A stretch of 64,000 bases of DNA from positions 1 to 64,000 of the forward strand of contig CAVYNY010000011.1 in NCBI GenBank assembly GCA_963769935.1, in the 5' to 3' direction. Under the pieces are notes generated by a model. It was not told the origin of the DNA and searched no databases. It was given only the letters and a program-made list of their open reading frames with translations. The stretch comes from an uncultured delta proteobacterium. Its GTDB lineage: Bacteria > Desulfobacterota > Desulfobacteria > Desulfobacterales > JAFDCJ01. The position numbers and the translations under genes are program-made. Below, in pieces: positions 6,202-24,536 of the stretch (positions are counted from its first letter, which is position 1; each line of letters starts with the position of its first letter).

Positions 6202-6330
6202 TTTGGACTCGTTGCAGTTTCAATGCCGGGCGATCTTCGCCTGGTTGCGGGAAACTGCCGGGGAATGGGTTGGTGATGAGAGGGTCCACGACGACCCTCT
6301 CCGCCATTGTGGGCTTTAACGGCCGTGTTG

Positions 6331-7308
6331 ATGTCTATAAAATATTCGAAGGCGAACACCGCCGGAACCGGGGCGCCAACCTCAGCGTTCGGCGATTTAT
6401 TATTCCGCAATATCAGCCGGATATTTGCTTTTCTAGTGCTTTGTATTCTGGCCGCAATTATCGTCTCGCTGTTCGTCGGCAGCTACCCTGCGATTAAAAA
6501 ATTCCAGTTCGGTTTTATCTTCAGTACCAAATGGAATCCGGTTACTCAGGAATTTGGTGCGCTGGCGCCCATTTTCGGCACGCTGGTCAGTTCCCTTATT
6601 GCGATGCTGATCGCCATTCCGGTCAGCTTCGGTGTCGCCCTGTTTCTCACCGAACTGTCACCCCCCTGGCTGAAGCGTCCCCTGGGTACGGCGATTGAAT
6701 TGTTGGCCGCTATCCCGAGTATTATTTACGGTATGTGGGGTTTATTTGTGTTTGCGCCGATCTTCGCCGAGACGGTGCAGCCCTGGCTGAAATCTCATCC
6801 TGGTAGCTGGCCGTTGGTCGGACCACTGTTTCAAGGTCCGCCGATGGGCATCGGGATATTAACGGCCGGGCTGATTCTGGCAATCATGGTAATCCCTTTC
6901 ATTGCCGCCGTCATGCGGGATGTGTTTGAAATTGTTCCCCACACCCTGAAAGAATCCGCCTATGCCCTGGGTGCCACGACCTGGGAGGTTGTGTGGCGCG
7001 TCGTCCTGCCCTATACCAAGGCCGGCGTGGTGGCCGGCATCATGCTGGGTCTGGGTCGCGCGCTCGGGGAAACAATGGCGGTAACCTTCGTTATCGGCAA
7101 CGCCCACAATCTGCACGCCTCACTGTTCATGCCCGGCAGCAGCATCGCCTCGACCCTGGCCAACGAATTCACCGAGGCGATCGGCGATCTATACACCTCG
7201 TCTCTTATGTACCTGGGGTTGCTGCTCTTTTTCATCACGTTGATCGTGCTGGCGATTTCACGGCTTCTTCTGGCGCAATTGCGCAAACGGGAGGGAAGCC
7301 GAACTTAG
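6331..7308 (+). CDS. pstC: Phosphate ABC transporter permease (start approximate)
   Basis: [39 protein letters not shown]. Confidence 0.95.
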
Positions 7309-7318
7309 ACAGGCAGCC

Positions 7319-8167
7319 ATGCGAATTTTTTCACCATATACCCGCAGACGTATCACCAACATTATCGGTCTGACTCTTTCTGTCATGGCCATGATTTTCG
7401 GTTTATTCTGGTTGGGGTGGATTCTTTTCACGCTGGTGCATTACGGTTTCCACGGCCTCAGCTTTCAATTGTTCACGGCGACGACCCCGCCGCCGGGCAG
7501 CCCGGGAGGCCTTTTAAACGCCATAGCCGGCAGTGTGGTCATGTCCGGCATCGCTACCCTGATCGGAACGCCCGTCGGCATCCTGGCGGCCACTTATCTT
7601 TCCGAATACGGCCGAACCGGTTGGCTGGCCCCCGTCACGCGTTTCATCAACGACATTTTGCTCAGCGCACCGTCGATTGTAATCGGACTGTTCATCTACG
7701 CGATCTACGTGGCACGCGTCGGGCATTTTTCGGGATGGGCCGGCACACTGGCTTTAGCGTTGATCGTGATTCCGGTCGTGGTGCGCACAACCGAAGATAT
7801 GTTGAAACTGGTTCCCGGCAGACTGCGCGAGGCTGCGGCCGCACTGGGGGCACCGCGCTGGAAGGTTATTGTATTCGTAGTCTATCGGGCGGCGAAAGGG
7901 GGTATGCTCACCGGCATTCTGCTGGCGATGGCTCGCATCAGCGGCGAAACCGCACCGCTGCTTTTTACGGCCTTAAACAACCAATTCTGGAGCTCCAATT
8001 TGAATGCGCCCATGGCAAATCTGCCGGTGGTTATCTTTCAGTTTGCCATGAGTCCTTACAAAGACTGGCATGAACTTGCCTGGGCCGGGGCACTGTTGAT
8101 CACATTCAGCGTATTGGGCTTGAATATTATAGCCCGCTTTCTCTTGAGGCGAAGGCATCATGGATAA
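7319..8167 (+). CDS. pstA: Phosphate ABC transporter permease
   Basis: [33 protein letters not shown]. Confidence 0.95.
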
Positions 8168-8984
8168 TTTACTGCCAACAGCTGTCCGCCCGCGCATATC
8201 GGCCGGCAAAAAGATCAAAAGTCGGCCGGATGCCGTCACGATAGCGGTGAGAAATTTGAATTTTTACTATGGAAATTACCAGGCCCTGAAAAATATTTCC
8301 CTGGATATCATGAAAAAAAAAGTCACGGCGATCATCGGCCCTTCCGGCTGCGGCAAATCAACGCTGCTGCGCACGCTGAACCGGATTTATGAACTCTATC
8401 CGCGGCTGAAGTGTACCGGTGAAATCCTGCTGGACGGAGAAAACATTCTAACCAAGAAACAAAATCTCAACCAGTTGCGGGCCCGGGTGGGAATGGTATT
8501 CCAGGTACCGACTTCTTTTCCCATGTCGATTTTTGACAATATCACTTTCGGAATCAAACTTTACGAGGATCTGAATCACAACCGCCTGGCCGAGCGGGTC
8601 GAAGCGGCGCTGCGCCAGGCAGCGCTGTGGGATGAGGTCAAAGACAAACTTCATCAAAGCGGCAACAGTTTATCCGGCGGGCAGCAGCAGCGCTTGTGCC
8701 TCGCGCGTTGCATTGCCGTCAGACCCGAAGTGATTTTGTTGGACGAACCGTGTTCGGGGCTGGACCCGATCTCCACCGGCCGTATCGAAGATCTGATGGC
8801 CGATCTGAAAAACGACTACACCATCGTCATTGTCACCCACAATATGCAGCAGGCTGCGCGAGTATCCGATTACACGGCCTATATGTATCTGGGGGAATTG
8901 ATCGAATTCGGCGATACGGACACGATATTTACCCACCCCGCCGAAAAAGCCACTGAAGATTACATCACCGGGAAATTCGGCTAA
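8160..8984 (+). CDS. pstB: Phosphate ABC transporter ATP-binding protein
   Basis: [29 protein letters not shown]. Confidence 0.97.
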
Positions 8985-9049
8985 ACGAAACCTGCAACTT
9001 GAATCCGGGAAGTTCCAAATCCAACCTGGCAAACATACATGGGAAGGTC

Positions 9050-9730
9050 ATGACCAAACATTTTCATAAAGAACTCGAAAATATAAAAAAACGGATTCTC
9101 ACGCTGGGCTACACGGTAGAGGAATTTGCGCGGCTGGGCATAACCGCTGTTGAAACGAGAGATGCCGACCTGGCGGAACGGATTATTCGCAAGGATTTCG
9201 AAATTGATGAGATGGAAGTCGAAATCGAAGAAGAATGCCTGAAAGTCTTGGCCCTGCATCAGCCCGTCGCCGTCGATCTTCGATTTCTGATCGCCGTCAT
9301 TAAAATCAATAGCGACCTGGAGCGCATCGGCGATGAGGTCGTTAACATCGCCGAACGCGTTAAAATCATCGCCAAACGTCCTCCGCTTGATTTTTCCTTT
9401 GACTATTCCCGCATGGGGGGAAAAGCACAAAAGATGTTGAAATTGGGCCTGGATGCATTGGTCGGCATGGATGATGTTCTTGCCTGGAAGGTGGTCCATC
9501 TCGACGATGAAGTCGATCAACTAAAACATGAAGCCTATGATCAAATAAAATCGGCGATGAGCGCAGACCCGAGCCGCGTTGGATACCTGATAAACCTTTT
9601 GCTCATCTCCCGCCACATTGAGCGCATGGCCGATCATGCCACCAACATCGCCGAAGAAGTCATCCACCTGGTTGAAGGTGAAATTATCCGACATTCTCAG
9701 TATGAGCGTGGAACAAGCAACACCCGATAG
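9050..9730 (+). CDS. phoU: Phosphate signalling protein PhoU
   Basis: QPVAVDLR, DLERIGD, IERMADHATNIAE; ATG at 9050 after GGAAGG. Confidence 0.95.
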   Translation: MTKHFHKELENIKKRILTLGYTVEEFARLGITAVETRDADLAERIIRKDFEIDEMEVEIEEECLKVLALHQPVAVDLRFLIAVIKINSDLERIGDEVVNIAERVKIIAKRPPLDFSFDYSRMGGKAQKMLKLGLDALVGMDDVLAWKVVHLDDEVDQLKHEAYDQIKSAMSADPSRVGYLINLLLISRHIERMADHATNIAEEVIHLVEGEIIRHSQYERGTSNTR

Positions 9731-9731: not shown

Positions 9732-9764
9732 AAAGAATCCCGGCCCTCTGGGCCGGGATTCTTT
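9732..9764 (+). terminator. Intrinsic terminator after phoU, possibly bidirectional
   Basis: Perfect 15-bp inverted repeat AAAGAATCCCGGCCC-TCT-GGGCCGGGATTCTTT. Confidence 0.85.
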
Positions 9765-9920: not shown

Positions 9921-9959
9921 TAAAATATTCTTGACAAGAATATTTTAGGCCGGTATCAG
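9921..9959 (+). promoter_or_regulatory. Sigma70-type promoter (-35 TTGACA 9931, -10 TATCAG 9954) embedded in a perfect 27-bp palindrome (candidate operator)
   Basis: TAAAATATTCTTG-A-CAAGAATATTTTA at 9921-9947; 17-bp spacer. Confidence 0.65.
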
Positions 9960-10077: not shown

Positions 10078-11052
10078 ATGTCCCTGCTGGAAATTCGCAA
10101 TCTCCGCACCCACTTTAAGACCCCGCACGGCACGGTTCGGGCGGTCGACGATGTCAGTCTCGACATCGGGGCCGGGGATGTGCTGGGTATCGTCGGAGAA
10201 TCCGGCTGCGGTAAAAGCGTTCTGTCCTTGTCGATTCTGCGGTTGCTGTCGATGCCTCCGGCCTTTTTTGCCGGCGGGCAAATTATATTCGACGGCCGGG
10301 ACCTGCTCCAGGCCACGGCCGAGGAGGTGCGCAGGATCCGCGGCAACCGGATCAGCATGATTTTTCAGGAGCCCATGTCGGCCCTGAATCCGGTGTTTAC
10401 CATCGGCAACCAGCTGTCGGAGGTTTTCCGGGTCCACTGGTCCCTGGGGGGATCAAAAGCCCTGGCAAAATCCGTGGAAATGCTGGAAACAGTGGGGGTG
10501 CCGGCCCCGCACCGGCGGATAAGGGAATATCCCTATCAGCTGTCCGGCGGCATGCGGCAGCGGGTGATGATCGCCATGGCCCTGGCCTGCCGCCCTGCAC
10601 TTCTGATCGCCGACGAGCCCACTACCGCACTGGATGTCACCATTCAGGCCCAGATTTTGGAACTCATGGGCCAACTGCGCGATGAACTGGGCACCGCCAT
10701 CGTAATCATTTCCCATGACCTGGGAGTGATTGCCGAAACCGCCGGCCGGGTGGCGGTCATGTACACCGGTCAGATCATGGAATCAGCCGACACGCTGTCG
10801 CTCTTCGCAAATCCGCTGCATCCTTACACCCGGGGGCTTATGCAAGCCATTCCCTCGCTGGTTAAAGGTGCCGCTCAGACCGAGCTTTACGAAATTGCGG
10901 GTGCCGTTCCCAGCCTTTTGGACCTGCCGACGGGTTGCCCTTTCAATCCCCGCTGTCCGCTGGTCGATGCAATCTGCCGCAATCAGAAACCGGCCCTGCG
11001 TGAAGTTGCCGACGGCCACCGGGTGGCCTGCTGGATGGTGGAGCATGCCTGA
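10078..11052 (+). CDS. Dpp/Opp-family ABC ATP-binding subunit (DppD-like)
   Basis: [20 protein letters not shown]...GCPFNPRC C-terminal domain. Confidence 0.93.
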
Positions 11053-12055
11053 GCTGCTGGAAGTCTACAATCTGGTCAAGCACTTTCCGGTGCGCCGCGG
11101 TCTGCTGCGCAGCCGCCGGGAGTATGTCCATGCCGTAGACGGCATCTCTTTCAGTCTGGGACCGGAAGAGACGCTGGGTCTGGTGGGCGAGTCGGGCTGC
11201 GGCAAATCCACCGCCGGCCGGGCCATTTTGCGGCTGATCCGGCCCACTGCCGGTCAGGTTTATTTCAAAGGCGAGGATGTTCTGGCGATGAATACCCTGC
11301 AGGAGCGCCGGATGCGGCGCCAAATGCAGATGATTTTTCAGGACCCCTTCGGCTCGCTGAATCCCCGGCTGACCGTCGAGCGCATCGTGGAAGAGCCTTT
11401 GGTGACGCACAAGGCCGGCGGCAATCGCCAACGACGGGAGCGGGTGGCCGAAATTCTGCGCACCGTGGGGCTCCTGCCCGAGCACATGCAGCGATTCCCC
11501 CACGAGTTTTCCGGCGGTCAGCGCCAGCGGATCATGATCGCGCGGGCCCTGGTGCTGCAGCCCGATCTGATCATCGGCGACGAGCCGGTTTCCGCGCTGG
11601 ATGTTTCGGTGCAAGCCCAGATCATCAATTTGATGGTGCGGCTGCAGCGGCAGTTCCGGTTTTCATACATTATTATTTCCCATGACCTGAGCGTTATCCG
11701 GCATGTCAGCCACCGGGTGGCGGTGATGTACCTGGGAGAGATCGTGGAGATGTCTGCGGCCGAGGCCCTGTACGAATCGCCCCGCCATCCTTACACCCTG
11801 GCTTTGCTGTCGGCCGTACCGGTGGCCGATCCGCGCCGCAAACGACAGCGGATCATCTTACGCGGGGACGTGCCTTCCCCGCTGAATCCTCCGCCGGGAT
11901 GCCGTTTCCATCCGCGCTGCCCGCAGCGCATGTCCGTCTGTGAACGGGAGGCCCCGGTCATGCGCCGGGTCGCCGACGGCCATCTGACCGCCTGCCACCT
12001 GCACCGCGACGGCCCCGAGTGGCGCCCGACCGCACCCGGCGCATCGTCCCCGTAA
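11045..12055 (+). CDS. Dpp/Opp-family ABC ATP-binding subunit (DppF-like)
   Basis: [31 protein letters not shown] overlaps the upstream stop. Confidence 0.93.
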
Positions 12056-12134
12056 GGGCGACGCACCAACGCAATGTCGGCAAGTTGATTAGAAACAGAA
12101 ACACGCACAACTCAAACGAAAAGGAGGTTATGTC

Positions 12135-13631
12135 ATGAAAAAATGCGCTTTCCTAACCCTGGCCGTATTCATTTGTCTGGCGCTGGCCGGCGCTCCGGCT
12201 GCGATGGCTGCGTCGGACACCCTGGTGGTGATGCAGGAGGCCGAGCCCGTCGGCCTGGATCTGATGCAAAGCTCCATCCAGACCACCATGAGCGTCTGCT
12301 ACAACATTCACGACACCCTGTTCCACCCCCAGGAGGATGCATCCGTGTTGCCGGCTCTGGCCGAAAAGTGGGAGAAAGTCGACGACCTGACCTGGAAAAT
12401 CACCCTGCGCAAGGATGCCGTGTTTCACAACGGCGAACCGGTCAACGCGGCGGCTGTCAAATTTTCCTATGATCGCATCAATAACGAGGCGCTGAAAAGC
12501 CCCAACCGGGGCAAGCTGTCGGCATTCACCGAGCTGAATGTAATCGACGACTACACCTTTACCATAAAAACTGCCGAACCTTATGCTCCCGGCCTTTACA
12601 TGCTGGGATACTACCTGCCGATTGTGCCGCCCAAGTACATCCAGGAAGTGGGCGACAGCAAGTACAACACCGATCCGATCGGCAGCGGCCCCTACCGCCT
12701 GAAGAAGTGGGTGCGGGGTGAAGAGATCGTGCTGGAGGCTTTCGACAAATATTACGGCCCCCAGCCGGCCTACAAGAACCTTATTTTCAAGGCTTCCCCT
12801 GAGGAGGCCTCCCGCATTGCCGCCCTGCTGACCGGCGAAGCCCAGGTCATCAGCGGTGTTCCGGTCCACGAGCGCAAGAAGATCCAGGATTCCGGCAAGG
12901 CCTACTTGACGCCGCAGATGGGTGTGATGCCTTACATGGGGATCAATACCTATGAAGCGCCCTTCGACGATGTGCGGGTCCGCCAGGCGATCAACTACGC
13001 CATCGACAGGGAGCTGATCAACAAGGCGCTGTTCGACGGCCAGGCGATCATCTGCGCCGGCCCCATCAGTCCCCGTACCTTCGGTGCCAGTCCCAGATTG
13101 AAGCCGTATCCCTACGATCCGGCCAAGAGCCGGGCCCTGCTCAAGGAAGCCGGTCATCCCGACGGCATCCAGGCGCGGCTGGCCTATCCCACCTATATGT
13201 CCCAGATCCAGGAGCAGGCCGAGGCGATTGCCGCCAACATGGGCAAGGCCGGCATCAACGTCACCCTGGAACCGTTTGAGCGGGCCGTGATGTGGGAGCG
13301 CTACAAGGGTAAAAAACACCAGCTCTTCATCTACTGGTGGGACGATGCCCCCGAGCCGGATCGCTACATGTACTCCCTGTTTAATTCCAAGAGCCGGGAC
13401 TACTACTACAAAAACCCGGCTGTCGACGAACTGCTGGACAAGGGGCGCACCATTATGGACCGCACCGAGCGCGCCAAAGTCTACGCCCAGATCGATGAAA
13501 TGCTTTACCAGGACGCCCCCTGGGCCTTCCTGTATGTGGTGCCCGAGGTCTTCGGGGTGGCCAACGATGTCGACTACCAGGGACGCCGCGACGGCTTCCT
13601 GAACATGCGTTACGCCAAACCCAAGATGTAA
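12135..13631 (+). CDS. Family-5 ABC substrate-binding protein
   Basis: Signal peptide, LAEKWE, FHNGEP, PIGSGPY, VRQAINYAIDR. Confidence 0.93.
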   Translation: MKKCAFLTLAVFICLALAGAPAAMAASDTLVVMQEAEPVGLDLMQSSIQTTMSVCYNIHDTLFHPQEDASVLPALAEKWEKVDDLTWKITLRKDAVFHNGEPVNAAAVKFSYDRINNEALKSPNRGKLSAFTELNVIDDYTFTIKTAEPYAPGLYMLGYYLPIVPPKYIQEVGDSKYNTDPIGSGPYRLKKWVRGEEIVLEAFDKYYGPQPAYKNLIFKASPEEASRIAALLTGEAQVISGVPVHERKKIQDSGKAYLTPQMGVMPYMGINTYEAPFDDVRVRQAINYAIDRELINKALFDGQAIICAGPISPRTFGASPRLKPYPYDPAKSRALLKEAGHPDGIQARLAYPTYMSQIQEQAEAIAANMGKAGINVTLEPFERAVMWERYKGKKHQLFIYWWDDAPEPDRYMYSLFNSKSRDYYYKNPAVDELLDKGRTIMDRTERAKVYAQIDEMLYQDAPWAFLYVVPEVFGVANDVDYQGRRDGFLNMRYAKPKM

Positions 13632-13642
13632 ATCTGTTAAGC

Positions 13643-13665
13643 CGGGGCCGCCCCGGGCGGCCCCG
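13643..13665 (+). other. GC-rich stem-loop after the SBP gene (no U-tract; likely an mRNA stabiliser)
   Basis: CGGGGCCGCCC-C-GGGCGGCCCCG. Confidence 0.6.
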
Positions 13666-13677
13666 AATCTGGTAGCG

Positions 13678-13844
13678 ATTGAATATTTTCGATTGAATAT
13701 TGAATATTTAAGGTATTCTTCCGATTTAATAAAGAAGGAGCATCACGCGGCGCAAGCGCCTGCGCTGCGCGAGCGACATCCACCAATATTCAATTTACAA
13801 TCTTCAATTTTCAATTCTCCGCCTCAAGGCGGATCCAGGTTAGG
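13678..13844. repeat. Inverted heptamer-array cassette (ATTGAAT...ATTCAAT) ending in CCGCC-N3-GGCGGATCCAGGTTAGG
   Basis: Tandem ATTGAAT units on the left arm, ATTCAAT/TCTTCAAT units on the right arm. Confidence 0.8.
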
Positions 13845-13849
13845 ACATC

Positions 13850-14776
13850 ATGCTGCAATACCTGTTTAAAAGACTCTGGCACACTGTTTATGTCATTATC
13901 GGCATTTCGGTGATCAGTTTCTTTTTTATCCACCTGTCCGGGGATCCGGTGATGCTCATGCTGCCGGCCGACGCCTCCAACCAGGAGATCGAAGACCTGC
14001 GGCAACAGCTCGGGTTCAATGATCCCATCTACGTTCAGTACCTGCGGTTTGCCTGGCAGGCGCTGCGCGGTGAGTTCGGCCAGTCGCTGTATTACAAGAT
14101 TCCGGCTATGCAGCTGATCCTCGAACGGCTGCCGGCCAGCCTTGAACTGGCGGTGGCTGCCATGCTGATTGCGCTGGTGGTGGCGGTGCCCATTGGTATT
14201 ATCTCGGCGGTGCGCCGCGGGTCGCTGCTGGACATGGGCAGCATGTTCGGCGCTCTGTTCGGTCTGTCCATGCCGCATTTCTGGCTGGGAATCATGCTGA
14301 TTATGATTTTTTCGGTCAAACTGGGCTGGCTGCCGACCTCGGGCCGGGGCACTCTGGCGCACCTGATCATGCCGTCCGTGGCGCTGGGGTTGAGCCTGAT
14401 GGCCATGTTCGCCCGTCTGACACGTTCGGTGATGCTCGAAGTGTTGAGCCTGGATTACATCCGCACGGCCCGCTCCAAAGGGCTCAAAGAACGGATCGTC
14501 GTTGCCAAACATGCTTTCAAGAATGCGCTGATCCCGCTTGTCACCGTGGCCGGCATGCAGTTCGGGTTTTTGCTGGGCGGCACGGTCATCATCGAGACCG
14601 TTTTTGCCTGGCCGGGTGTCGGCCGCCTCGTGGTCCAGGCGATTTTCAACCGGGACTACCCCCTGGTGCAGGCCGTCGTTCTGGTGCTGGCGGTGATCTT
14701 CGTTGCGGTCAACTTCATCGTCGACATGCTTTATATGTATTTGGACCCCCAGATCAGCTATTTCGAGGACAAATGA
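13850..14776 (+). CDS. Dpp/Opp ABC permease (DppB-like)
   Basis: GDP...QYL; DYIRTARSKGL; ETVFAWPGVGRL. Confidence 0.93.
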   Translation: MLQYLFKRLWHTVYVIIGISVISFFFIHLSGDPVMLMLPADASNQEIEDLRQQLGFNDPIYVQYLRFAWQALRGEFGQSLYYKIPAMQLILERLPASLELAVAAMLIALVVAVPIGIISAVRRGSLLDMGSMFGALFGLSMPHFWLGIMLIMIFSVKLGWLPTSGRGTLAHLIMPSVALGLSLMAMFARLTRSVMLEVLSLDYIRTARSKGLKERIVVAKHAFKNALIPLVTVAGMQFGFLLGGTVIIETVFAWPGVGRLVVQAIFNRDYPLVQAVVLVLAVIFVAVNFIVDMLYMYLDPQISYFEDK

Positions 14777-15687
14777 ACCAGCAGGCTGCTGCCAAAGCAT
14801 CCATTTTCGAAGATATCACGCCCCGGCTGCGGTTTATGACCGAGACCCTGCGGGAGGTGGCCCGGCGCCCCAGCGCCCTGCTGGGCGGGATCATGATTAC
14901 AGCCATCCTGCTGACCAGTGTTTGTTTCCCCCTCTTTTATCCGGTGGATCCCCTGGAGCAGGATTTGCTGGCTCGCTTCACACCGCCGGTCTGGCAGGAA
15001 GGCGGCAGCTGGGTTTACCCCCTGGGGGCGGACAACCTCGGCCGCGATGTATTGGCCCGCCTGCTCTACGGCAGCCGGGTGTCGCTGCTGGTCGGCTTTG
15101 CGGCCGTGCTGGTGGCGGAGCTGGCCGGGATCATGCTGGGGCTTTTTTCAGGCTACTACGGCGGCAAACTCGACAGCCTGATCATGCGGGTGGCCGACAT
15201 CTTCATGGCCTACCCCTTTATGCTGCTGACCATATCGGTCATCGCCGTGCTGGGAACCTCGATCTTCAACCTGATCCTGGTGCTGGGACTTTCCGACTGG
15301 GTGACCTATGCCCGCACTATCCGGGGCAGCGTCCTGTCCCTCAAGGAAAAGGAGTTCGTGGAAGCCTCGCGGGCCATCGGCACCCCCCACCGGGTGATCA
15401 TCTTCCGGCACATCCTGCCGAACGTGATTTCACCGCTGCTGGTACTCGGCACACTGCGGGTGGCCAACATCATCATCTGGGAAAGCGGACTTTCTTTCCT
15501 GGGCATGGGCGTGCCGCCGCCGATGCCCACCTGGGGGCGAATGCTGGCGGAAGGCCGGCTTTACATTACCGACGCCTGGTGGCTGGTGACCTTGCCCGGT
15601 GTGGCCATCATGCTGACCATTTTGTCGATCAACCTGTTGGGAGACGGCCTGCGGGATGCTTTGGATCCGCGGCTTCGCAACATTTGA
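14773..15687 (+). CDS. Dpp/Opp ABC permease (DppC-like)
   Basis: LGADNLGRDVLARLLYG; EFVEASRAIG; GDGLRDALDP. Confidence 0.93.
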   Translation: MNQQAAAKASIFEDITPRLRFMTETLREVARRPSALLGGIMITAILLTSVCFPLFYPVDPLEQDLLARFTPPVWQEGGSWVYPLGADNLGRDVLARLLYGSRVSLLVGFAAVLVAELAGIMLGLFSGYYGGKLDSLIMRVADIFMAYPFMLLTISVIAVLGTSIFNLILVLGLSDWVTYARTIRGSVLSLKEKEFVEASRAIGTPHRVIIFRHILPNVISPLLVLGTLRVANIIIWESGLSFLGMGVPPPMPTWGRMLAEGRLYITDAWWLVTLPGVAIMLTILSINLLGDGLRDALDPRLRNI

Positions 15688-15706
15688 CGCTTAGAAGGGA
15701 AAAAAA

Positions 15707-16894
15707 ATGACGAAAGTACTGGTGCTGGGCCTCGGCCTGCAAGGCAAGGCGGTTATTCACGATCTGGAGCAGAGTGATCTGGTGTCCGAAGTCGTGGTGG
15801 CGGACATCGACCCGCAGGCAATGCAGGGCTTTTTCGAACGCAAAGGCTACCGCAGGTGCCGGGCGGTTGGACTGGACGCCGCCCGGCCGGGAGCTTTGTC
15901 GGAGCTGATCGAAACGGTCGGACCGCAGATTACTATCAGCATGCTGCCGGCCGACTTCAATTATCCCGCTGCCCGGGCGGCCCTGACGGCCGGGTGCAAC
16001 TTTGTCAGCAGCAGTTACGCCGGCCGGGTGGCCGAACTGGATGCGGAAGCCCGGGCCCAGGGGGTCACCCTTTTGCCCGAAATGGGAATGGACCCCGGGA
16101 TCGACCTCGTCCTCGGACGCCTGGCCGTGGACGAACTGGACGTGGTGCACGGTCTGTACTCATACGGGACCGGCCTGCCCGAGCCCGGTTGTGCCGGGGA
16201 CAACCCCCTGCATTACAAGATCACCTGGACTTTCGACGGCGTCCTGAAAGCCTACAAGCGATCCTCCCGCATCCTGAAAGATGGCAAGGAAGTGGCCATC
16301 GCCGGAGAGGAAATTTTCAGGGACGAGCACGGCCACACCCTTGAGATCCCGGGACTCGGACCGCTGGAGGCCTATCCCAATGGCGACGCCATCCACTACA
16401 TCCAGGTTTTTGGGCTCGGACCCGAAGTCCGGGATATGGGCCGTTTTGCTTTGCGGTATCCCGGACACCGGCGCTTCTGGGCGGTGATGGCCGGGCTGGG
16501 GTTTCTGGACGACGCACCTCTGCCGGTCGACGGCGGGTCGATTTCTCCCCGGCAGTTTTTGGTCCGGCACCTGACGCCGAAACTTCAGTTCGCCGACGAT
16601 GAACGCGACGTCATCATCCTGCGGGTGAACGCCTGGGGACTCAAGCAAAACCGGCAGCGACGGGTGACCTACCAGCTCATCGATTACCGGGACCTCACCT
16701 CCGGACTGTTTGCCATGAATCGGACGGTGGGTTACACCGCCAGCATCGCGGCGCAGATGATTCTCAAAGGGCAGATCACGGCTGCCGGGGTTCTGTCTCC
16801 GACCCGGGATGTGCCCCCCAAGGATCTGCTGCGCGAACTCAAGGCCCGGGGGATGCAGGTCGAGCATCGGATTGAAGAAAGCGAGAACCTTTAA
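15707..16894 (+). CDS. Saccharopine dehydrogenase-family oxidoreductase (lysine 6-dehydrogenase-like)
   Basis: Rossmann VLVLGLGLQG; GMDPGID; NPLHYKITWT; LRYPGH; AMNRTVGY. Confidence 0.88.
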   Translation: MTKVLVLGLGLQGKAVIHDLEQSDLVSEVVVADIDPQAMQGFFERKGYRRCRAVGLDAARPGALSELIETVGPQITISMLPADFNYPAARAALTAGCNFVSSSYAGRVAELDAEARAQGVTLLPEMGMDPGIDLVLGRLAVDELDVVHGLYSYGTGLPEPGCAGDNPLHYKITWTFDGVLKAYKRSSRILKDGKEVAIAGEEIFRDEHGHTLEIPGLGPLEAYPNGDAIHYIQVFGLGPEVRDMGRFALRYPGHRRFWAVMAGLGFLDDAPLPVDGGSISPRQFLVRHLTPKLQFADDERDVIILRVNAWGLKQNRQRRVTYQLIDYRDLTSGLFAMNRTVGYTASIAAQMILKGQITAAGVLSPTRDVPPKDLLRELKARGMQVEHRIEESENL

Positions 16895-16898
16895 GCGG

Positions 16899-18095
16899 AT
16901 GGAACGGGAACCCGAACATACAGACGAACTGGAAAAACGCATCCAGCGCCGGGTCGGCGCCCGGGTCCGTGAACTGCGGCAGGCGGCCGGAATTACGGCC
17001 GTCGTCCTGGCCGGTCAGGCCGGCCTCTCCCAGGGGCAGCTTTCCAAGATCGAAAATGGCAAGGCCACACTGTCGGTAAAGACCCTGGCGTGCCTGTGTC
17101 GGATTTTCGACCGTCCGGTGGGCTACCTCTTTCAGAGCTTGCATGAGATGCCCCGGGTGCTGGGAACGCTGACCACGGTCAGAGGTCCGGAAAACGAAGG
17201 CATCCACTGGTTTGCCGAGGAGGTCCGCAAATTGGCCGGCGGGAATCTGCAGCTGATCCCTCTGCGCCCTTCCCAGATCGGTTCCGCCGTCGATCAGGTC
17301 GATCAGCTCAAGGACGGCCTCATCGATCTGTTCGTGGAAGAGCTTTTCTATTATGGCAAGTTTGTCGATGGGTTCAAGTTTTTTTCGCTGCCGTATGCCT
17401 TCAATTCCGAAGCGCACCGTCAGGCCTTTCTCGGCAGCCGGTTTTTTCAGCAGCAACTGTTCGAACCGATGCGCCGGGAGGGGATCCGCCTGATCAATCG
17501 GCAATGGAACTGGCTGCGGGGGCTGGAGTGGGTGCTGGCTGCCAACCGGCCTGTGGCCGCCCCCCAGGATCTGCGCGGTCTTAAAGTCCGGGTAGTCGAA
17601 AACCCATTGATGCATCGATTCTGGCAGGCGTTGGGTGCCCGTCCGGTAGCGGTTCCCTGGTCGGAGGTCATAGCGGCCCTGCGATCCGGCGACATCGATG
17701 TGCTGCCCACCCACAAGGCCCACCTCTATCCCCTGGAATTTTGCCGTTACGTCCGCTATATTTCGCTGCTCGGGGACCTGTCGCCGGTGTTGAGCGTGGC
17801 CGTCAACGAGGCCAAATACCGGATCCTGTCCCCCGAAATTCAGAAGGCCCTGTTGGAGGCCTGCGACCGGGCCGGTGTTTTTTTCAGCCGCCACGTACGG
17901 CAATCTGAGATTGAAAACGAGCAGTTGAACATCCGGCGCTTCAAGGCGGTCTACCTCAAGGTTTCGCTTGATCCCTGGTACGAGGCTGTCGCCCGGGCGC
18001 GTCGTGACCTGTTGGCCGAGAGGCTGCTGGATTCAGACACGGCCGCGGCCGTTGACGCCGCCGGCCGGATAGAAGAAGAGACCCAAGCGTCATGA
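16899..18095 (+). CDS. XRE-family HTH fused to a TRAP DctP-like substrate-binding domain; putative one-component regulator
   Basis: RVRELRQ...LSQGQLSKIENGK, then DctP features (LPYAF, DLRGLKVRV, ALGARPVAVPWSEVIAALRSGDID); no signal peptide. Confidence 0.85.
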   Translation: MEREPEHTDELEKRIQRRVGARVRELRQAAGITAVVLAGQAGLSQGQLSKIENGKATLSVKTLACLCRIFDRPVGYLFQSLHEMPRVLGTLTTVRGPENEGIHWFAEEVRKLAGGNLQLIPLRPSQIGSAVDQVDQLKDGLIDLFVEELFYYGKFVDGFKFFSLPYAFNSEAHRQAFLGSRFFQQQLFEPMRREGIRLINRQWNWLRGLEWVLAANRPVAAPQDLRGLKVRVVENPLMHRFWQALGARPVAVPWSEVIAALRSGDIDVLPTHKAHLYPLEFCRYVRYISLLGDLSPVLSVAVNEAKYRILSPEIQKALLEACDRAGVFFSRHVRQSEIENEQLNIRRFKAVYLKVSLDPWYEAVARARRDLLAERLLDSDTAAAVDAAGRIEEETQAS

Positions 18096-19468
18096 GCAAA
18101 TGGACAACCAAAATTCTGGCCGACTATGTCGGCGACATGGCGCAAACGAGGCTGGACACTGCAGTTGCCGGGGCTGCCGCCAATGTCCTGATCGACCTGA
18201 TCGGCTGCGCGGCGGGCGGGTTTGATTCAGCGGCGGCCCGGGCCACGCGGCAGACGGTTGGTCAACTCTATGCCGACGGCCCGGCCGTCATCTGGTTTGG
18301 TTCAATCCAGCGGCGGGCCGAAGGCGCCGCCATGGCCAACAGCACCGCGGCCAGCGCCCTGGATCTGGACGACGGCCACCGGCGCGCCGGCGGCCATCCC
18401 GGGGCGGCCATCGTGCCTGCGGTCCTGGCAGTGGGACCGACAGCCGGAGGCTCTGGCGGAGCCGCCGGAAGAGAACTGATTGCCGCCATCGCGGCCGGAT
18501 ACGAGGTGGCCGTGCGGATTGCCGCCGCACGCGATTTCAAGCGGCTGGACACCCTATCCACCGGGCGCTGGTGTGCTTACGGCACAGTTGCCGCCGCCGG
18601 CCTGCTCAGCCGAGATGATCCCGCCACCCTGGCCCAGGCGTTTGCCATTGCCGGCGTCCTGTCGCCGGGGCTCTCGGCGGCGGGCTACAGCACGGTGATG
18701 GGCAATCAGGCCAAGGAGGGAATCCCGTGGGCGGTGATGACGGGGCTGACGGCCCTGGAAATGGCGCGGCGAGGATTCACCGGACCGCTCGACATCCTGG
18801 ATCACCCGGATTATTTTGATGCGGCTGCCATCACCGCCGGGCTGGGCACCGGCAGGGCGCTGCAGTCGGTTTATTTTAAGCCCTATGCCTGCTGCCGTTG
18901 GATCCATTCGGCCCTGGATGCGATCATTAATCTTGTTAAGGACCACCATCTGGCTGCGGACGATATTCAGACGGTGGACGTATTCACCTTTGAGCGCACG
19001 CTGCGGCTCAACAACTATGCCGATCCCGCCACCCTCGAAGGGGCGCAGTACAGCCTGCCGTTCTGCCTCGCGGTGGCCGCGGTCGGCGGGGCCGAGGCGT
19101 TGATGCCGTTTTCCCCGGACTGGCTGCAGCGGCCGGACATTGTGGCGCTGGCGCGCCGGGTAAATCTGCATGTCGACCCCGCACTGGATGAGCGGTTTCC
19201 GAAAGAAACCGGCGCCCGGGTTTGCCTGCAGGCTGCCGGCGGAGTTCTCGAACAGACCATCCGGCATCCGGTCGGGGACCCGGCCAATCCGATGGATAAA
19301 ATCCAATTGACGGCCAAGTTCAAAAAGTTGTCGGCGGGAATCATTTCGCCGCAGGATCAGGCCGATTTACTGGCGCTGATCGATCAACTGGCCGACCTGG
19401 CGGATACTGCTCAAATTGTGGCCTGCCTAAGCGGACCCGATGCCGGGGATGCATCCCATAAGCGCTAA
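18092..19468 (+). CDS. MmgE/PrpD family protein
   Basis: LDLDDGH...GHPG; GYEVAVRI; YFKPYACCRWIH; AQYSLPF; GDPANPM. Confidence 0.92.
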   Translation: MSKWTTKILADYVGDMAQTRLDTAVAGAAANVLIDLIGCAAGGFDSAAARATRQTVGQLYADGPAVIWFGSIQRRAEGAAMANSTAASALDLDDGHRRAGGHPGAAIVPAVLAVGPTAGGSGGAAGRELIAAIAAGYEVAVRIAAARDFKRLDTLSTGRWCAYGTVAAAGLLSRDDPATLAQAFAIAGVLSPGLSAAGYSTVMGNQAKEGIPWAVMTGLTALEMARRGFTGPLDILDHPDYFDAAAITAGLGTGRALQSVYFKPYACCRWIHSALDAIINLVKDHHLAADDIQTVDVFTFERTLRLNNYADPATLEGAQYSLPFCLAVAAVGGAEALMPFSPDWLQRPDIVALARRVNLHVDPALDERFPKETGARVCLQAAGGVLEQTIRHPVGDPANPMDKIQLTAKFKKLSAGIISPQDQADLLALIDQLADLADTAQIVACLSGPDAGDASHKR

Positions 19469-19553
19469 GCATTTTTGCCAGGCGGGTTATAAAAGAACGG
19501 ACCTATATACAAAATTTAGGATAAACGGCATTCGAATAGAAAGGAGGCCAACC

Positions 19554-21392
19554 ATGCATGGATGGAGAGGAAAAGTATTACGGGTCGACCTTTCCGGCGG
19601 GCAAGTCACGGATCATCCTCTGGATGAAAAAATGGCCAGAGATTACATTGGTGGACGCGGCTTCGGTATTTTCACCATGCTGGCCGAGCTCGATCCCAAT
19701 TGTGATTCGCTCGGGCCTGAAAACATTCTCATTATGGCCGCCGGTCCGCTGACGGGAACCCGGGCGCCCACCGGTGCCCGCTACATGGTGATGACAAAAT
19801 CCCCCCTGACCGGAGCGATTACGTGTTCAAACTCCGGCGGAAAATTCCCGGCCATGCTGAAGAAAAGCGGCATCGACATGATCATATTCAGCGGCAAATC
19901 TCCCGAACCGGTTTACCTGTGGGTAAATGCCGGCCGCGCCCGACTGCGTCCGGCCGCCCATCTGTGGGGCAAAAACACCCATGAGACCGAATCGGACCTG
20001 CGCCGTGAAACGCATCCGGAGGCCTGCGTGGCCTGTATCGGCCCGGCCGGTGAACGGGCCGTCCTGTTCGCGGGCATCATGAACGACGGGGACCGTGCCG
20101 CCGGCCGTTCAGGGGTCGGCGCGGTCATGGGCGCGAAGAACCTCAAGGCCGTGGCCGTTTACGGCGATTCGCCCGTTCCCCTGTTTGATGCGGCCGAATT
20201 CAAAGATTTGGTCAAAAAATTCAACCGCAAGTTCAGCGACAGCCTCAATGGCAAGCCGCCGGGATTGCGCACTTACGGCACCGCGGCTACCATAATCGGC
20301 ACCCAGGCGGTCGGAGCGCTGCCCACCCGCAATTTTCAGCAGGGAACTTTCGAGGGGTGGGAAGCCATCAGCGGCCAGACCCTGACCGATAAATATCTGG
20401 TCCGATCCAAAGCCTGCCACGCCTGTCCGATCGGCTGCGGCCGCGTAAGCCGGGTGGAGGAACCGGACTTCCAGGGCGAAGGCGAGGGCCCGGAGTACGA
20501 AACCATTTATGCCATGGGGTCAAACTGCGGAATCGACAACCTGGCGGCGATCACCAAGGCCAATTATATCTGCAATGAGCAGGGCATGGACACGATTACC
20601 ATGGGCGGCACCGTCGCCTGCGCCATGGAGATGTTCGAAAAAGGCATCATCACGGAAAAAGACGTCGGTATGCCCCTGATGTTCGGCGACGCCAAGGCCC
20701 TGGTGGAACTCACGCGGCTGACGGCGGAAAAGAAGGGATTCGGTGCGTTGCTGGCCGAGGGCAGCCTGCGGCTGGCCCGGCGGTTCGGCCATCCGGAGTT
20801 GGCCGTCACGGTCAAGGGGCAGGAGTTCGCGGGCTACGATCCGCGGGCGGAACAGGGCATGGGACTGGCCTACGCCACCTCCCCGATCGGCGCCTCGCAC
20901 ATGCGCGGCGATCCGGCCTATATCGAAATTCTAGGGGTGCCATTTCAGATTGACCCTCTCACCTGGGACGATAAGGCGCAGCTGATTAAGGACTGGCAGG
21001 ACACCTTCGCCGTGATCGACGCGGCCGGTCTGTGTGTATTCTTCTCGATGCGCAATCTGGTCATTCCGGACCGGACGATCCGCCCCCAGGGCATCATGGA
21101 ACTGCTGAATGCCGCGACCGGCGCCGGCTATACCCTGGATGAGATCTGCCTGGCCGGCGAACGGATTTTCAATGCCGAACGCCTGTTTTTGACAAGGGCC
21201 GGGTTTTCCGCTAAGGACGACACCCTGCCCGAGCGCATTCTCAAGCAGCCCCTGCCCGATGGACCGGCCGGCGGCATGGTCTGTCATCTCGACGAGATGC
21301 TGAGGGACTATTACCCGTTGCGGGGATGGGACGGCGCGGGCCATCCGACCCGCGACAAACTGAACCAACTTGGGCTTACAGCGACCGATTAG
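19554..21392 (+). CDS. aor: Aldehyde:ferredoxin oxidoreductase (tungstopterin AOR family)
   Basis: GKVLRVDLS; YIGGRG; AAGRSGVGAVMGAKNLKA; CHACPIGC; EGPEYE; DDTLPER; RBS AGGAGG. Confidence 0.93.
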   Translation: MHGWRGKVLRVDLSGGQVTDHPLDEKMARDYIGGRGFGIFTMLAELDPNCDSLGPENILIMAAGPLTGTRAPTGARYMVMTKSPLTGAITCSNSGGKFPAMLKKSGIDMIIFSGKSPEPVYLWVNAGRARLRPAAHLWGKNTHETESDLRRETHPEACVACIGPAGERAVLFAGIMNDGDRAAGRSGVGAVMGAKNLKAVAVYGDSPVPLFDAAEFKDLVKKFNRKFSDSLNGKPPGLRTYGTAATIIGTQAVGALPTRNFQQGTFEGWEAISGQTLTDKYLVRSKACHACPIGCGRVSRVEEPDFQGEGEGPEYETIYAMGSNCGIDNLAAITKANYICNEQGMDTITMGGTVACAMEMFEKGIITEKDVGMPLMFGDAKALVELTRLTAEKKGFGALLAEGSLRLARRFGHPELAVTVKGQEFAGYDPRAEQGMGLAYATSPIGASHMRGDPAYIEILGVPFQIDPLTWDDKAQLIKDWQDTFAVIDAAGLCVFFSMRNLVIPDRTIRPQGIMELLNAATGAGYTLDEICLAGERIFNAERLFLTRAGFSAKDDTLPERILKQPLPDGPAGGMVCHLDEMLRDYYPLRGWDGAGHPTRDKLNQLGLTATD

Positions 21393-21662: not shown

Positions 21663-22658
21663 TTAGGAACGGAAATGACAGGCCGCCCAGTGACCGGGAT
21701 CTTTTTCTTCCAGCAATGGTCCTTCCAGGGTGCAGACCTGTTGGGCTTCCGGACAGCGCGAGTGGAAGGCACAGCCCCGGGGCGGATCGGCCGGACTCGG
21801 CAACTCGCCGGCCAGAATCCGTCGTCGGCGCCGGCGCTGCAATACCGGATCCGGCAAAGGAATTGCGCTCATAAGCGCTTCGGTATAGGGATGCAGGGGC
21901 GCGTCGAACAGCGTCTTGGTGGGTGCCGTCTCCACGATTTTGCCCAAATAGAAAACCGCGACCCGGTCGCAGATATGACGGATTACGGACAAATCATGGG
22001 AGATGAACAGATAGGCCATGTGCATTTCCTGCTGGAGATCAACGAGAAGGTTTAGGATTTGAGACTGCACCGACACGTCTAAAGCTGAAACGGGTTCATC
22101 GCAGACAACCAGCCGCGGCCTGAGAGCCAGGGCCCTGGCGATGACCAGCCGCTGCCGTTGACCGCCTGAAAATTCGTGGGGATAGCGGGAAATATACTCG
22201 CTCTGCAGTCCGACGGTTTCAAAAAGGGCTTTGACCCGGTTTTTCAGTTCGGCGCCTCTGGCATTTTGATGCACGTAAAGCGGTTCACCGACACTTTCCC
22301 CCACCGTCATTTTGGGGTTCAGCGATGAGACCGGATCCTGAAATATGATCTGCATGTGGCGGCGAATGCGGCGCAGGCTGTCGCTATCCTGCGAATTCAT
22401 TATCTCGCCGTCGAACTCCACCGATCCGGCCGTGGGTTCCACCATCCGCAGAACAGCGTTTCCAACCGTGGATTTGCCGCAGCCGGATTCCCCCACGACA
22501 CCGAAGTTTTCAGCGGCATCAATAACAAAACTGACACCGTCGACGGCTTTGACGACCCCTGTTTGGCGGCCGAACAACCCGCCCCGAATCGGGAAGTGAA
22601 TCTTTAAGTCCGTTACCCGCAGAAGCGGCGCCTTCTGAGTATTTTTTGCTGCTGTCAT
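21663..22658 (-). CDS. Dpp/Opp ABC ATP-binding subunit (DppF-like)
   Basis: [27 protein letters not shown]. Confidence 0.93.
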   Translation of the reverse strand: MTAAKNTQKAPLLRVTDLKIHFPIRGGLFGRQTGVVKAVDGVSFVIDAAENFGVVGESGCGKSTVGNAVLRMVEPTAGSVEFDGEIMNSQDSDSLRRIRRHMQIIFQDPVSSLNPKMTVGESVGEPLYVHQNARGAELKNRVKALFETVGLQSEYISRYPHEFSGGQRQRLVIARALALRPRLVVCDEPVSALDVSVQSQILNLLVDLQQEMHMAYLFISHDLSVIRHICDRVAVFYLGKIVETAPTKTLFDAPLHPYTEALMSAIPLPDPVLQRRRRRRILAGELPSPADPPRGCAFHSRCPEAQQVCTLEGPLLEEKDPGHWAACHFRS

Positions 22659-23638
22659 CCGTTCGAACCCATCTGTTCCAAGTGTTTCCAGCAGGCGACA
22701 AAGTAGTCTCCCTCCCGTATCGGCTCCAGCCGCGGCGTCTCACAACGACAGGTGTCATCCGCCAGGGGGCAGCGGGTTTGGAAACGACAGCCGGGCGGCC
22801 AATTGCGGGGATCGGGCACAACCCCCTCAATGATGTGCAGTTTCTCCTTTTGCCGGCCGTCGATGCGGGGGATGCTTTTCAAGAGCAGCCGGGTATACGG
22901 GTGTCTGGGCGCTCTGAAAATTTCAAACACATCCCCCTGTTCAACCACGCGCCCGGCATACATTACCGCTACCTGATCGGCCATATCGGCGACGATGCCC
23001 ATGTCATGGGTGATCAGAATCACCGCCGTACCAATTTCTGCCCGCATCGTGCGAATCAGGTCGAGGATTTGGGCCTGAATCGTCACATCGAGCGCGGTTG
23101 TCGGTTCATCCGCAATGAGGACCGAAGGCCGGCATGCAAGTGCCGCCGCAATCATGATGCGTTGGCACATACCGCCCGAGAGCTCGAATGGATATTGTTT
23201 TAACCGGGTGCCGGCCTCCGCAATCCCCACCAGCTCAAGCATTGCCAAAGCCTGCTGCAAGGCTTTCGGGCGTGCAATGTTCTGGTGGGCCTGGATCGAT
23301 TCAATGATCTGGTCGCCGACGGTCATCAAAGGGTCGAGGGCGCTGCCGGGTTCCTGAAATATCATAGCAATGTCGTTGCCCCGAATGCGTTGCATGTCTT
23401 TTTCGGGTATCTTGGAAAAGTCCTTTCCATTCAGGCGCAATGAGCCTTGGCTCAATTTTGCCGCCTCCGGCAGCAGGCGCATCAGCGCCAGGGCCGTGAT
23501 CGTTTTTCCACAGCCGGACTCGCCCACCAAGGCCAGGGTTTTACCGGTTTCAATTGCAAAACTGACGTCGGAAATAATGTCGATGCCGTCGATGGTGACG
23601 CAGAGATTATCTATTTCCAACAATGCCTGGCTATCCAA
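22655..23638 (-). CDS. Dpp/Opp ABC ATP-binding subunit (DppD-like)
   Basis: [25 protein letters not shown]. Confidence 0.93.
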   Translation of the reverse strand: MDSQALLEIDNLCVTIDGIDIISDVSFAIETGKTLALVGESGCGKTITALALMRLLPEAAKLSQGSLRLNGKDFSKIPEKDMQRIRGNDIAMIFQEPGSALDPLMTVGDQIIESIQAHQNIARPKALQQALAMLELVGIAEAGTRLKQYPFELSGGMCQRIMIAAALACRPSVLIADEPTTALDVTIQAQILDLIRTMRAEIGTAVILITHDMGIVADMADQVAVMYAGRVVEQGDVFEIFRAPRHPYTRLLLKSIPRIDGRQKEKLHIIEGVVPDPRNWPPGCRFQTRCPLADDTCRCETPRLEPIREGDYFVACWKHLEQMGSNG

Positions 23639-23645
23639 CGGGTTC

Positions 23646-24536
23646 CTATCTCCTCAAGCTGCGGGGATCAAATCGATCGCGCAGGTAGTCGCCGATCATG
23701 TTGACGGACAACACCAAAAGAAACAAACAAATCCCGGGCAGCGTGGCAATCCACCAGGCAATTGCCATGTAGTTGCGGCCCGTGCTTAAAATGGAACCCC
23801 AGCTCGGCGTCGGGGCCTGCACCCCCAGTCCCAGAAACGACAGGCCGGCCTCGAAAAGGATCATCAGTCCAAATTCCAGCGTTGCGACCACAATCAGCGG
23901 TGCGATGATATTGGGGGCAATGTGGCGCCATAATATGCGGCGGGTCTTGATGCCGATAAAGTGCGATGCCTTGACATAGGGCATATTGGCAACGCTCAAT
24001 GTCTGACCATAGGCCACGCGGGAATAGCGGGGCCAGCGGGTGAATCCAAGCACCAGGATTAAATTCTTCAGTCCCGGCCCGAGTACGGCCACGGTGATGA
24101 TGGCCAGCAGAAGGGGCGGGATCGATAAAACAATATCCACGATACGCATGATTACGACTTCGACCTTGCCCCGGTAATAGCCGGCAATCAGTCCCAGCCA
24201 TGTGCCGACAAAAGTTGAGACCACCACCGACAGCAAGGCCACAAACAGCGAAATGCGTGTGCCGTAGATGATTCGGCTCAGCAGGTCGCGGCCAAGCTGG
24301 TCCGTTCCCAGCAGGTATAATTTGCCGCCGGCTGCCGTTCCCGGCGGCTTGAGACGGGCCAGCAGATTTTGAACATCGGGATCAAAGGGGGCCACCAGCG
24401 GAGCCAAAACCGCGACCGCTGTGAAGAAGCCGAAAATAATGAACAGTGGCCATATGTTGCCGGAATCACCAAATAAAGTGGTCAACCCCCAGCGTTGGGG
24501 ATGAAAATTTTCCATGGTTTGCTTGTGGGCCGTCAT
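23646..24536 (-). CDS. Dpp/Opp ABC permease (DppC-like)
   Basis: LGTDQLGRDLLSRIIYG; GDYLRDRFDP. Confidence 0.93.
   Translation of the reverse strand: MTAHKQTMENFHPQRWGLTTLFGDSGNIWPLFIIFGFFTAVAVLAPLVAPFDPDVQNLLARLKPPGTAAGGKLYLLGTDQLGRDLLSRIIYGTRISLFVALLSVVVSTFVGTWLGLIAGYYRGKVEVVIMRIVDIVLSIPPLLLAIITVAVLGPGLKNLILVLGFTRWPRYSRVAYGQTLSVANMPYVKASHFIGIKTRRILWRHIAPNIIAPLIVVATLEFGLMILFEAGLSFLGLGVQAPTPSWGSILSTGRNYMAIAWWIATLPGICLFLLVLSVNMIGDYLRDRFDPRSLRR

Follow-up and report, generated by a model that had tools for sequence, protein, structure and literature searches.

Which compound does a bacterium take up and break down when it sets a peptide-type importer, a saccharopine-dehydrogenase-family enzyme, an MmgE/PrpD-family protein and an aldehyde:ferredoxin oxidoreductase (AOR) side by side under a regulator of their own? 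The question is raised by a 64,000-nt stretch (the window) of contig CAVYNY010000011.1, from an uncultured delta-proteobacterium of the Desulfobacterales (assembly GCA_963769935.1), in which nine plus-strand genes fill nt 10078–21392 (open reading frame and domain scan of the window; Table 1). A first-pass annotation had suggested breakdown of an opine- or saccharopine-like compound, and this is now backed independently by lysine-ketoglutarate reductase (LKR) genes, by canonical saccharopine dehydrogenase (SDH) partners and by homologues of the MmgE/PrpD protein in opine loci. The cluster is real and conserved and appears to be a locally regulated catabolic operon, and its substrate probably belongs to the N-alkyl-glutamates. 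That it is an uptake-and-breakdown operon for saccharopine itself, N6-(1,3-dicarboxypropyl)lysine, probably in both configurations at the glutamate carbon, has in our estimate about an even chance. What was observed is which genes are present, how they are conserved and partnered, which residues they keep, and that operator and regulator occur together; every activity, the ligand and the direction of flux are inferred.

Conservation of the cluster

The dehydrogenase-anchored scan returned 23 loci, and a separate sample of 401 genomes of the phylum included 20 with a match. After three duplicates (L067, L068, L081) were dropped, 42 loci had a dehydrogenase of at least 50% identity; the genomes compared are kin, and locus counts are not independent. 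The core order is kept across genomes related to sulfate-reducing bacteria, all five importer genes preceding the dehydrogenase in 26 of the 28 loci having enough upstream DNA. Among the 33 loci with at least 3 kb downstream, the MmgE/PrpD gene occurs in 24, the regulator in 17, an adjoining LKR in 15 (three of them picked through LKR), AOR in five and an aldehyde dehydrogenase (ALDH), in AOR's place, in two. The corresponding counts for the 21 dehydrogenase-anchored loci alone are 15, 11, 10, 4 and 2. MmgE/PrpD or LKR is present in 32 of the 33.

An independent anchor, a profile of 79 MmgE/PrpD sequences, matched 21 of 401 genomes of the class, that of the window included; 20 of the 22 matches outside the window's genome were fetched, and 14 of these 20 loci contain the dehydrogenase. 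Since the same order recurs from the dehydrogenase anchor and, separately, from the MmgE/PrpD anchor, the cluster is more than a chance assembly. Its nearest relatives by gene are found in Desulfobacterales and other delta-proteobacteria, and its distribution looks patchy: no match to the regulator at E ≤ 1e-40 turned up among 60 relatives, of which 22 belong to the same genus.

Metatranscriptome contigs (four runs, one study) cover 29–30 of 30 bins of the cluster and bridge six gene junctions. A control stretch was covered almost as fully (20–28 of 30 bins) and one contig spans two convergent genes, so specific expression or a single transcript is not claimed from these data. Scans of the cluster for sigma-70 promoters and terminators gave numbers near chance (8 versus 3.9 and 19 versus 12.2, respectively), and within it neither the two AT-rich matches resembling promoters nor the several resembling terminators exceed that level.

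The saccharopine-dehydrogenase-family enzyme

The best solved relatives of this protein, which carries both saccharopine-dehydrogenase domains, are eukaryotic SDHs (E 1e-39), followed by lysine 6-dehydrogenase (9e-18). Equivalents of Ser99, Tyr100, Asp126, Trp174, Arg243 and Arg247 of the Magnaporthe grisea enzyme are all kept; Ser99, Trp174 and Arg247 have roles in that enzyme. Three substitutions stand out: Gly226 for Arg224, Ala248 for Thr245 and Ala82 for Tyr78. Arg224 and Tyr78 contact the glutamate carboxylate in SDH, according to PMC6264447, and their loss speaks against a plain assignment. A glycine at the Arg224 site also occurs in seven of 31 long-type SDH rows, which softens the objection, and Tyr78 is no useful discriminator, its position (82 in the window protein) being variable among long SDHs.

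In a FastTree reconstruction of 130 proteins, with representatives limited to rows of 360–480 aa, the enzyme belongs to a clade of 14 rows (support 99) that groups with proteins of about 390 aa and is separate from the long canonical-type SDHs. It lies outside a LysDH-like clade (support 100; named by motif likeness to 3abi, which is not itself in the tree) that holds two other paralogues from the window's genome. The Asp126–Arg243 pair is kept in the cluster enzyme and lacking in the LysDH-like clade, and an identity as lysine 6-dehydrogenase is disfavoured on both grounds. Carboxyspermidine dehydrogenase was likewise set aside, with an E-value of only 2e-5 to 8deb and no decarboxylase among the neighbours scanned; PMC10413350 places a CASDC gene beside that enzyme (CASDH).

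Two other sets of short dehydrogenases were encountered. Tandem paralogues, 55–58% identical to the window enzyme, occur at L073:8391-10852 and L075:4290-6693, one copy of each pair reading SNY and the other SSY/SASY at the Ser99–Tyr100 site; they may split substrates or epimers between them. A second group of short Gly226-type enzymes adjoins polar amino-acid ABC transporters (L040:9353-10615, L029, L035, L036 and L090), the L040 member being from the window's own genome.

Link to lysine-ketoglutarate reductase

The recurrent 435-aa neighbour matches the LKR domain of human AASS over its length (E 2e-73). LKR was found in 56 of the 401 class genomes and not in that of the window (96.7% complete). 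LKR had 57 matches, and in the 20 of these loci that were fetched a long SDH is adjacent in eight, the short type in three (two of them with neither importer nor MmgE/PrpD gene) and a related short type lies 6 kb away in one. The short dehydrogenase appears to stand where canonical SDH stands, because it adjoins LKR, because no long SDH was seen in four genomes having both cluster and LKR, and because two long SDHs flank the MmgE/PrpD gene of the cluster in L080. The cluster was seen in 13 genomes of the class; LKR was found in seven of these but not in the other six (three of five further genomes have it). The substrate is therefore probably external, and a cluster working without LKR would have to import it.

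The MmgE/PrpD protein and opine loci

Iminodisuccinate (IDS) epimerase is the best solved relative of the MmgE/PrpD protein (E 7e-29). In PMC12290011, only four activities are counted as characterised in the family, all on 1,4-dicarboxylates; the family is said to hold dehydratases and decarboxylases, and the residues H85, D88, H99, Y145, H150, K198 and K266 are listed. A conserved His, Asp and two Lys are also given in PMC6789909. The cluster protein has both Pfam domains and four of the seven residues, the equivalents of Asp88, His99, Lys198 and Lys266, and thus the catalytic His, Asp and two Lys of the superfamily. Identity as IDS epimerase or as (S)-(R)-methylsuccinate isomerase was rejected since Tyr145, His85 and His150 are missing; the 79-sequence profile shows an invariant set of its own instead, Arg97, Arg147, Arg159, Trp160, Tyr199, Cys267, Cys268, Arg269 and Arg302, five of them arginines. 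Nor is the protein a 2-methylcitrate dehydratase PrpD (61.8 bits against an NCBIfam cut-off of 950, and no prp genes among the neighbours scanned).

The first-pass annotation had proposed import, epimerisation or dehydration, C–N cleavage and aldehyde oxidation. This outline is supported by the genes that partner the cluster and by the opine-locus homologues, for aldehyde oxidation only in part. Epimerisation is more likely than dehydration, since the protein has lost two of the residues associated with 1,4-dicarboxylate substrates in this family.

On the Ti plasmids pTiS4 and pTi932 the putative rideopine region carries the subfamily signature, at 35–43% identity, and so does an AgaA (agropinic acid) locus; both opines are N-alkyl-glutamates. 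A plasmid search for the subfamily gave 123 records, mostly from rhizobia. Among ten hand-picked plasmid loci, an OCD-family gene is found in L087 and L088 (and, by gene order, in L091) and DAO-family genes in L089, L093, L094, L095 and L096; none was seen in L092 or L097. L093 is an aga locus (its binding protein matches AgaA at 2e-294) and has a split MmgE/PrpD gene, L095 is an oxidase operon with traR at its end, and L097 sits amid 2-oxoadipate pathway genes. L092 and L094, with two subfamily members each, match a region tentatively assigned to rideopine, N-(4-aminobutyl)-D-glutamate, in PMC10410297 and PMC8554961. Nine further non-Ti replicon loci, also chosen by hand, have an OCD-type or flavin oxidoreductase, judged by annotation names only, within 8 kb in seven cases; none lies within 8 kb in L139 or L143. 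In L083, a Desulfobacterales paralogue precedes an opine-oxidase-like pair. The subfamily thus repeatedly adjoins C–N oxidoreductases of three unrelated folds.

The only stereocentre of rideopine is its glutamate alpha-carbon, and mannopinic acid is a glutamate with a mannityl group on its nitrogen, so an epimerase of opine loci would act at that carbon. Saccharopine is the lysine counterpart of these N-alkyl-glutamate opines. MmgE genes are not mentioned in the parts seen of four opine papers (PMC10410297, PMC8554961, PMC8087989 and PMC10745273), although gene maps in the supplement to PMC10410297 may label them.

A rhizobial plasmid operon with ABC, TauD, RraA, C–N hydrolase, OCD-like and MmgE/PrpD genes (L087:1894-13739, L088, L091, L138, L140, L145) often adjoins LuxR/TraR-type quorum genes, and looks like an undescribed conjugal-opine locus.

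Aldehyde:ferredoxin oxidoreductase

The AOR lies on the true-AOR branch, with full-length matches to 9mqx (4e-184) and 1aor (7e-175) and a Cys-x2-Cys-x3-Cys stretch; enzymes of this family carry a tungsten-bispterin cofactor and use ferredoxin as acceptor. Orthologues of at least 65% identity occur in 11 of 20 genomes having the MmgE/PrpD subfamily and in 10 of 380 others (the same 400 genomes, in which kinship inflates the contrast). In 20 AOR orthologue loci, most of the genes come after a class-III (omega-)aminotransferase, often with BKACE, CoA-transferase, thiolase or ALDH, and the ALDH of these loci is 82% identical to that of L005. AOR is best regarded as an accessory step that would oxidise a semialdehyde.

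A 62% identical AOR orthologue comes after long SDH and LKR in two genomes. These long SDH–LKR–AOR runs (L118:8903-13438, L119:4674-9209) are a candidate anaerobic saccharopine pathway for lysine, in which AOR would replace the NAD-dependent semialdehyde dehydrogenase. Another recurring module (L099–L104, L107, L111, L114 and L117) combines a PRK07483-like class-III aminotransferase, AOR, a LIV-type ABC transporter, a sigma-54 activator, CoA-transferase, thiolase and BKACE, and probably serves omega-amino acid catabolism. In the window itself, a MoeA-like gene lies 8 kb beyond the AOR gene (29309–30235).

Regulator and predicted operator

The first-pass annotation listed a regulator and missed both its architecture, an XRE helix-turn-helix (HTH) fused to a TRAP DctP-type domain, and the palindrome at 9921–9947. 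The HTH forms the N-terminus, of low hydrophobicity and with no signal-peptide-like stretch. There are 183 relatives at E ≤ 1e-20, and the invariant Arg231 occupies the position of the DctP 'KIRV' arginine, which presumably binds carboxylate. A periplasmic TRAP DctP binding protein was rejected as an identity, there being no signal peptide and no dctQM in the cluster. One-component regulators such as LacI and SgrR, and TRAP DctP proteins, share parts of this plan (HTH and periplasmic-binding-protein fold; the conserved DctP arginine), but the cluster regulator sets an XRE HTH on a family-7 (DctP) domain.

The palindrome overlaps a TTGACA -35 box (9931–9936). Of 17 loci with the regulator, the window included, 16 have it upstream of dppD, and of 10 without the regulator none does; the sole miss, L025, scores 14.1 on the matrix, compared with at most -6.8 in regulator-less loci. 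The window palindrome is the top site of its genome (score 37.4, next 20.7; no matches in 100 shuffles), and as no other strong site emerged when the whole genome was scanned, no wider regulon is indicated. The co-occurrence of palindrome and regulator speaks for a single, locally controlled promoter, though it is no proof that the genes share a transcript.

Proposed pathway and alternatives

In the preferred reading, the Dpp-type ABC system would import saccharopine, and the MmgE/PrpD protein would interconvert its epimers, His102 abstracting the glutamyl alpha-proton, Lys208 and Lys263 holding the enolate, and Cys268 or Tyr199 being candidates for the second base. The NAD(P)-dependent dehydrogenase would then oxidise the lysine C6–N bond to yield 2-aminoadipate semialdehyde and glutamate, and AOR may convert the semialdehyde to 2-aminoadipate, reducing ferredoxin. 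Sitting on the palindrome, the XRE-DctP protein would keep the only promoter, upstream of the cluster, repressed until a carboxylate effector released it.

The cluster would thus combine the saccharopine pathway with opine catabolism in a hybrid fashion, but its enzymes fail the residue tests for canonical SDH and IDS epimerase. With the former pathway (LKR/SDH and 2-aminoadipate semialdehyde dehydrogenase; PMC7253579) it shares an SDH-family enzyme, a frequent LKR neighbour and an aldehyde-oxidising third step. It differs in beginning with an importer rather than LKR, in a short SDH without helical insert, in an AOR for the NAD-dependent ALDH, and in the extra MmgE/PrpD enzyme. The importer, predicted C–N oxidoreductase and local regulator expected of an opine catabolism locus are all present, as in the Agrobacterium aga and putative rideopine (RIC) regions (PMC10410297, PMC8554961) and with OoxAB (PMC10745273); the family-5 type of importer and the MmgE/PrpD subfamily are shared too. 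In contrast, the cluster is of chromosomal type in anaerobes with no T-DNA link, uses an NAD(P)-dependent SDH fold and not flavin oxidases, and would release the aldehyde side. The match to the tungsten AORs 1aor and 9mqx is full-length, but the cluster AOR, a predicted tungsten enzyme, belongs to a clade tied to amino-acid semialdehyde modules.

Several points weigh against saccharopine. The Arg224/Tyr78 carboxylate-binding pair is missing from the dehydrogenase, which makes a different N-substituent or configuration possible. With Tyr145, His85 and His150 gone, the MmgE/PrpD protein has no evident second base. We know of no natural source of the D-glutamyl epimer. The presence of MmgE/PrpD or LKR in nearly all loci is weak evidence, because four of the five genomes whose cluster is without MmgE/PrpD carry a more distant subfamily member elsewhere. 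No SDH is in range at eight of the 20 LKR loci. The AOR, listed in the first-pass annotation with the other cluster members, proved not to be a constant one, adjoining in so few loci and being replaced by ALDH in two others; the aldehyde-oxidation step draws support from the AOR clade in SDH–LKR–AOR runs, while the aminotransferase context of most orthologues fits omega-oxo acids without an alpha-amino group. The plasmid loci (ten, and nine more) were hand-picked, without a control set of other MmgE/PrpD clades, and the rideopine gene roles are themselves only putative in PMC10410297.

Another N-alkyl-glutamate, either a diamine-glutamate (rideopine or its cadaverine homologue) or an omega-amino-acid-glutamate (of gamma-aminobutyrate, 5-aminovalerate or 6-aminohexanoate), would give glutamate and an omega-aldehyde for AOR. 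The subfamily members of the putative rideopine region, the lost Thr245 equivalent, the derivation of AOR and ALDH orthologues from omega-aminotransferase modules and the tandem paralogues of L073 and L075, which suggest more than one substrate, would all suit it; the LKR and long SDH partners point instead to lysine, and the enzyme retains residues matching Arg247 and Ser99, which the lysine 6-dehydrogenase 3abi has too. This alternative is rather unlikely. Less probable still is a reading in which a saccharopine-like compound is indeed imported and cleaved at its C–N bond but the MmgE/PrpD protein does not epimerise it, being a lyase or decarboxylase or acting on a lactam or a later acid, with AOR an incidental neighbour. 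The absent catalytic Tyr145, the dehydratases and decarboxylases of the family, the 28 of 33 loci without AOR and the chance-level internal signals agree with it, whereas an adjacency to C–N oxidoreductases of three folds is the pattern expected of an epimerase feeding stereospecific enzymes, and the AOR clade co-occurs with the subfamily by genome.

A substrate of the N6-carboxyalkyl-lysine kind (carboxyethyl- or carboxymethyl-lysine, carboxyethyl-ornithine), formed by glycation or by condensation with pyruvate, is a little more doubtful again. A natural epimer mixture would account for an epimerase, here resolving the R/S carboxyethyl forms before cleavage to alanine or glycine, and the lost His85/His150 and Arg224 equivalents fit a smaller substituent. 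Against this, the known-substrate contexts of the subfamily are glutamate-based, the five invariant arginines suggest a polyanion, and LKR aligns over its length with the human 2-oxoglutarate enzyme. Ordinary peptide and lysine use, with Dpp importing dipeptides and the dehydrogenase acting as lysine 6-dehydrogenase, seems the least probable of the four. The importer matches peptide/nickel transporter families, three loci have M55 and M20 peptidases in their vicinity, and the enzyme is short and lacks Arg224 like lysine 6-dehydrogenase; its place in the tree and its Asp126–Arg243 pair speak against such a role, the window's genome already has two LysDH-like genes, and the MmgE/PrpD protein would be left unexplained. 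Lysinoalanine, deoxyhypusine, methyl-lysine, Amadori compounds and nicotianamine-type metallophores, considered as further candidate substrates, were dropped as no neighbouring gene supports them.

If saccharopine is the substrate, an oxygen-free saccharopine route, perhaps using AOR and ferredoxin, would be indicated, and with it a substrate seldom counted for sediment heterotrophs. The pathway would give a testable function to an uncharacterised MmgE/PrpD subfamily common to anaerobic Desulfobacterales-type genomes and Ti-plasmid opine loci. The regulator, with its unusual architecture and likely operator, is a candidate biosensor, and its ligand would at once reveal what the pathway consumes. 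A bolder and distinctly speculative extension, on balance doubtful, is that the subfamily is a general N-alkyl-glutamate epimerase, a missed step in the pathways of rideopine and other Ti-plasmid opines, and that sediment anaerobes live on saccharopine epimers by means of a D-glutamyl-preferring dehydrogenase and a tungsten AOR under a new XRE-DctP repressor class. In that case opines of the saccharopine type would make up a genuine pool of carbon and nitrogen in anoxic sediments. A full-text literature search, with subscription papers mostly outside its reach, returned no description of the cluster, of the XRE-DctP regulator or of an opine role for MmgE/PrpD.

Genes of the cluster and its surroundings

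The domain scan bore out the gene identities of the first-pass annotation (Dpp importer, saccharopine-dehydrogenase-family enzyme, regulator, MmgE/PrpD and AOR).

Table 1. Features of the cluster in the window.
Feature	Position (nt)	Strand	Basis
DppD-type ABC ATPase, 324 aa	10078..11052	+	PF00005, PF08352
DppF-type ABC ATPase, 336 aa	11045..12055	+	NF008453 above cut-off; start picked by dppD overlap
Family-5 solute-binding protein, 498 aa, N-terminus hydrophobic	12135..13631	+	Domain scan
DppB-type permease, 308 aa	13850..14776	+	Domain scan
DppC-type permease, 304 aa	14773..15687	+	Domain scan
Short saccharopine-dehydrogenase-family enzyme, 395 aa	15707..16894	+	PF03435 + PF16653
XRE helix-turn-helix + TRAP DctP-type domain fusion, 398 aa	16899..18095	+	Domain scan
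MmgE/PrpD-family protein, 458 aa; predicted N-alkyl-glutamate epimerase	18092..19468	+	PF03972 + PF19305
Aldehyde:ferredoxin oxidoreductase, 612 aa, accessory	19554..21392	+	PF02730 + PF01314 (AFOR_N + AFOR_C)
Perfect palindrome, 13-bp arms, predicted operator of the XRE-DctP regulator	9921..9947		Motif comparison between loci

Nine co-oriented genes were described as tightly spaced; number and strand hold, but the spacing has one exception. From dppD to AOR the intergenic distances are -8, 79, 218, -4, 19, 4, -4 and 85 nt, the 218-nt gap 3' of the binding-protein gene being the sole wide break. That gap (13632–13849) holds an AT-rich inverted repeat matched by many unrelated contigs; it is probably a dispersed repeat and may stabilise the upstream message. 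The binding protein has only distant matches to solved structures (5u4o, 3e-64; DppA, 4e-47; AgaA, 4e-44).

A second complete Dpp-type importer (21663–27296, minus strand) converges on the cluster; its binding protein is only about 30% alike, and related loci do not have it next to their clusters. More family-5 transporter genes lie at 45482–53376 and 59489–61390. Upstream is a run of what, by their translations, look like phosphate ABC transporter genes with a PhoU-like gene (5161–9730), closed by a strong terminator-like hairpin (9732–9764). The G+C content is about 60% across the block and about 50% further out on both sides, while nt 1–4000 are unlike the rest of the window, with low G+C (38–45%) and a strongly positive GC skew.

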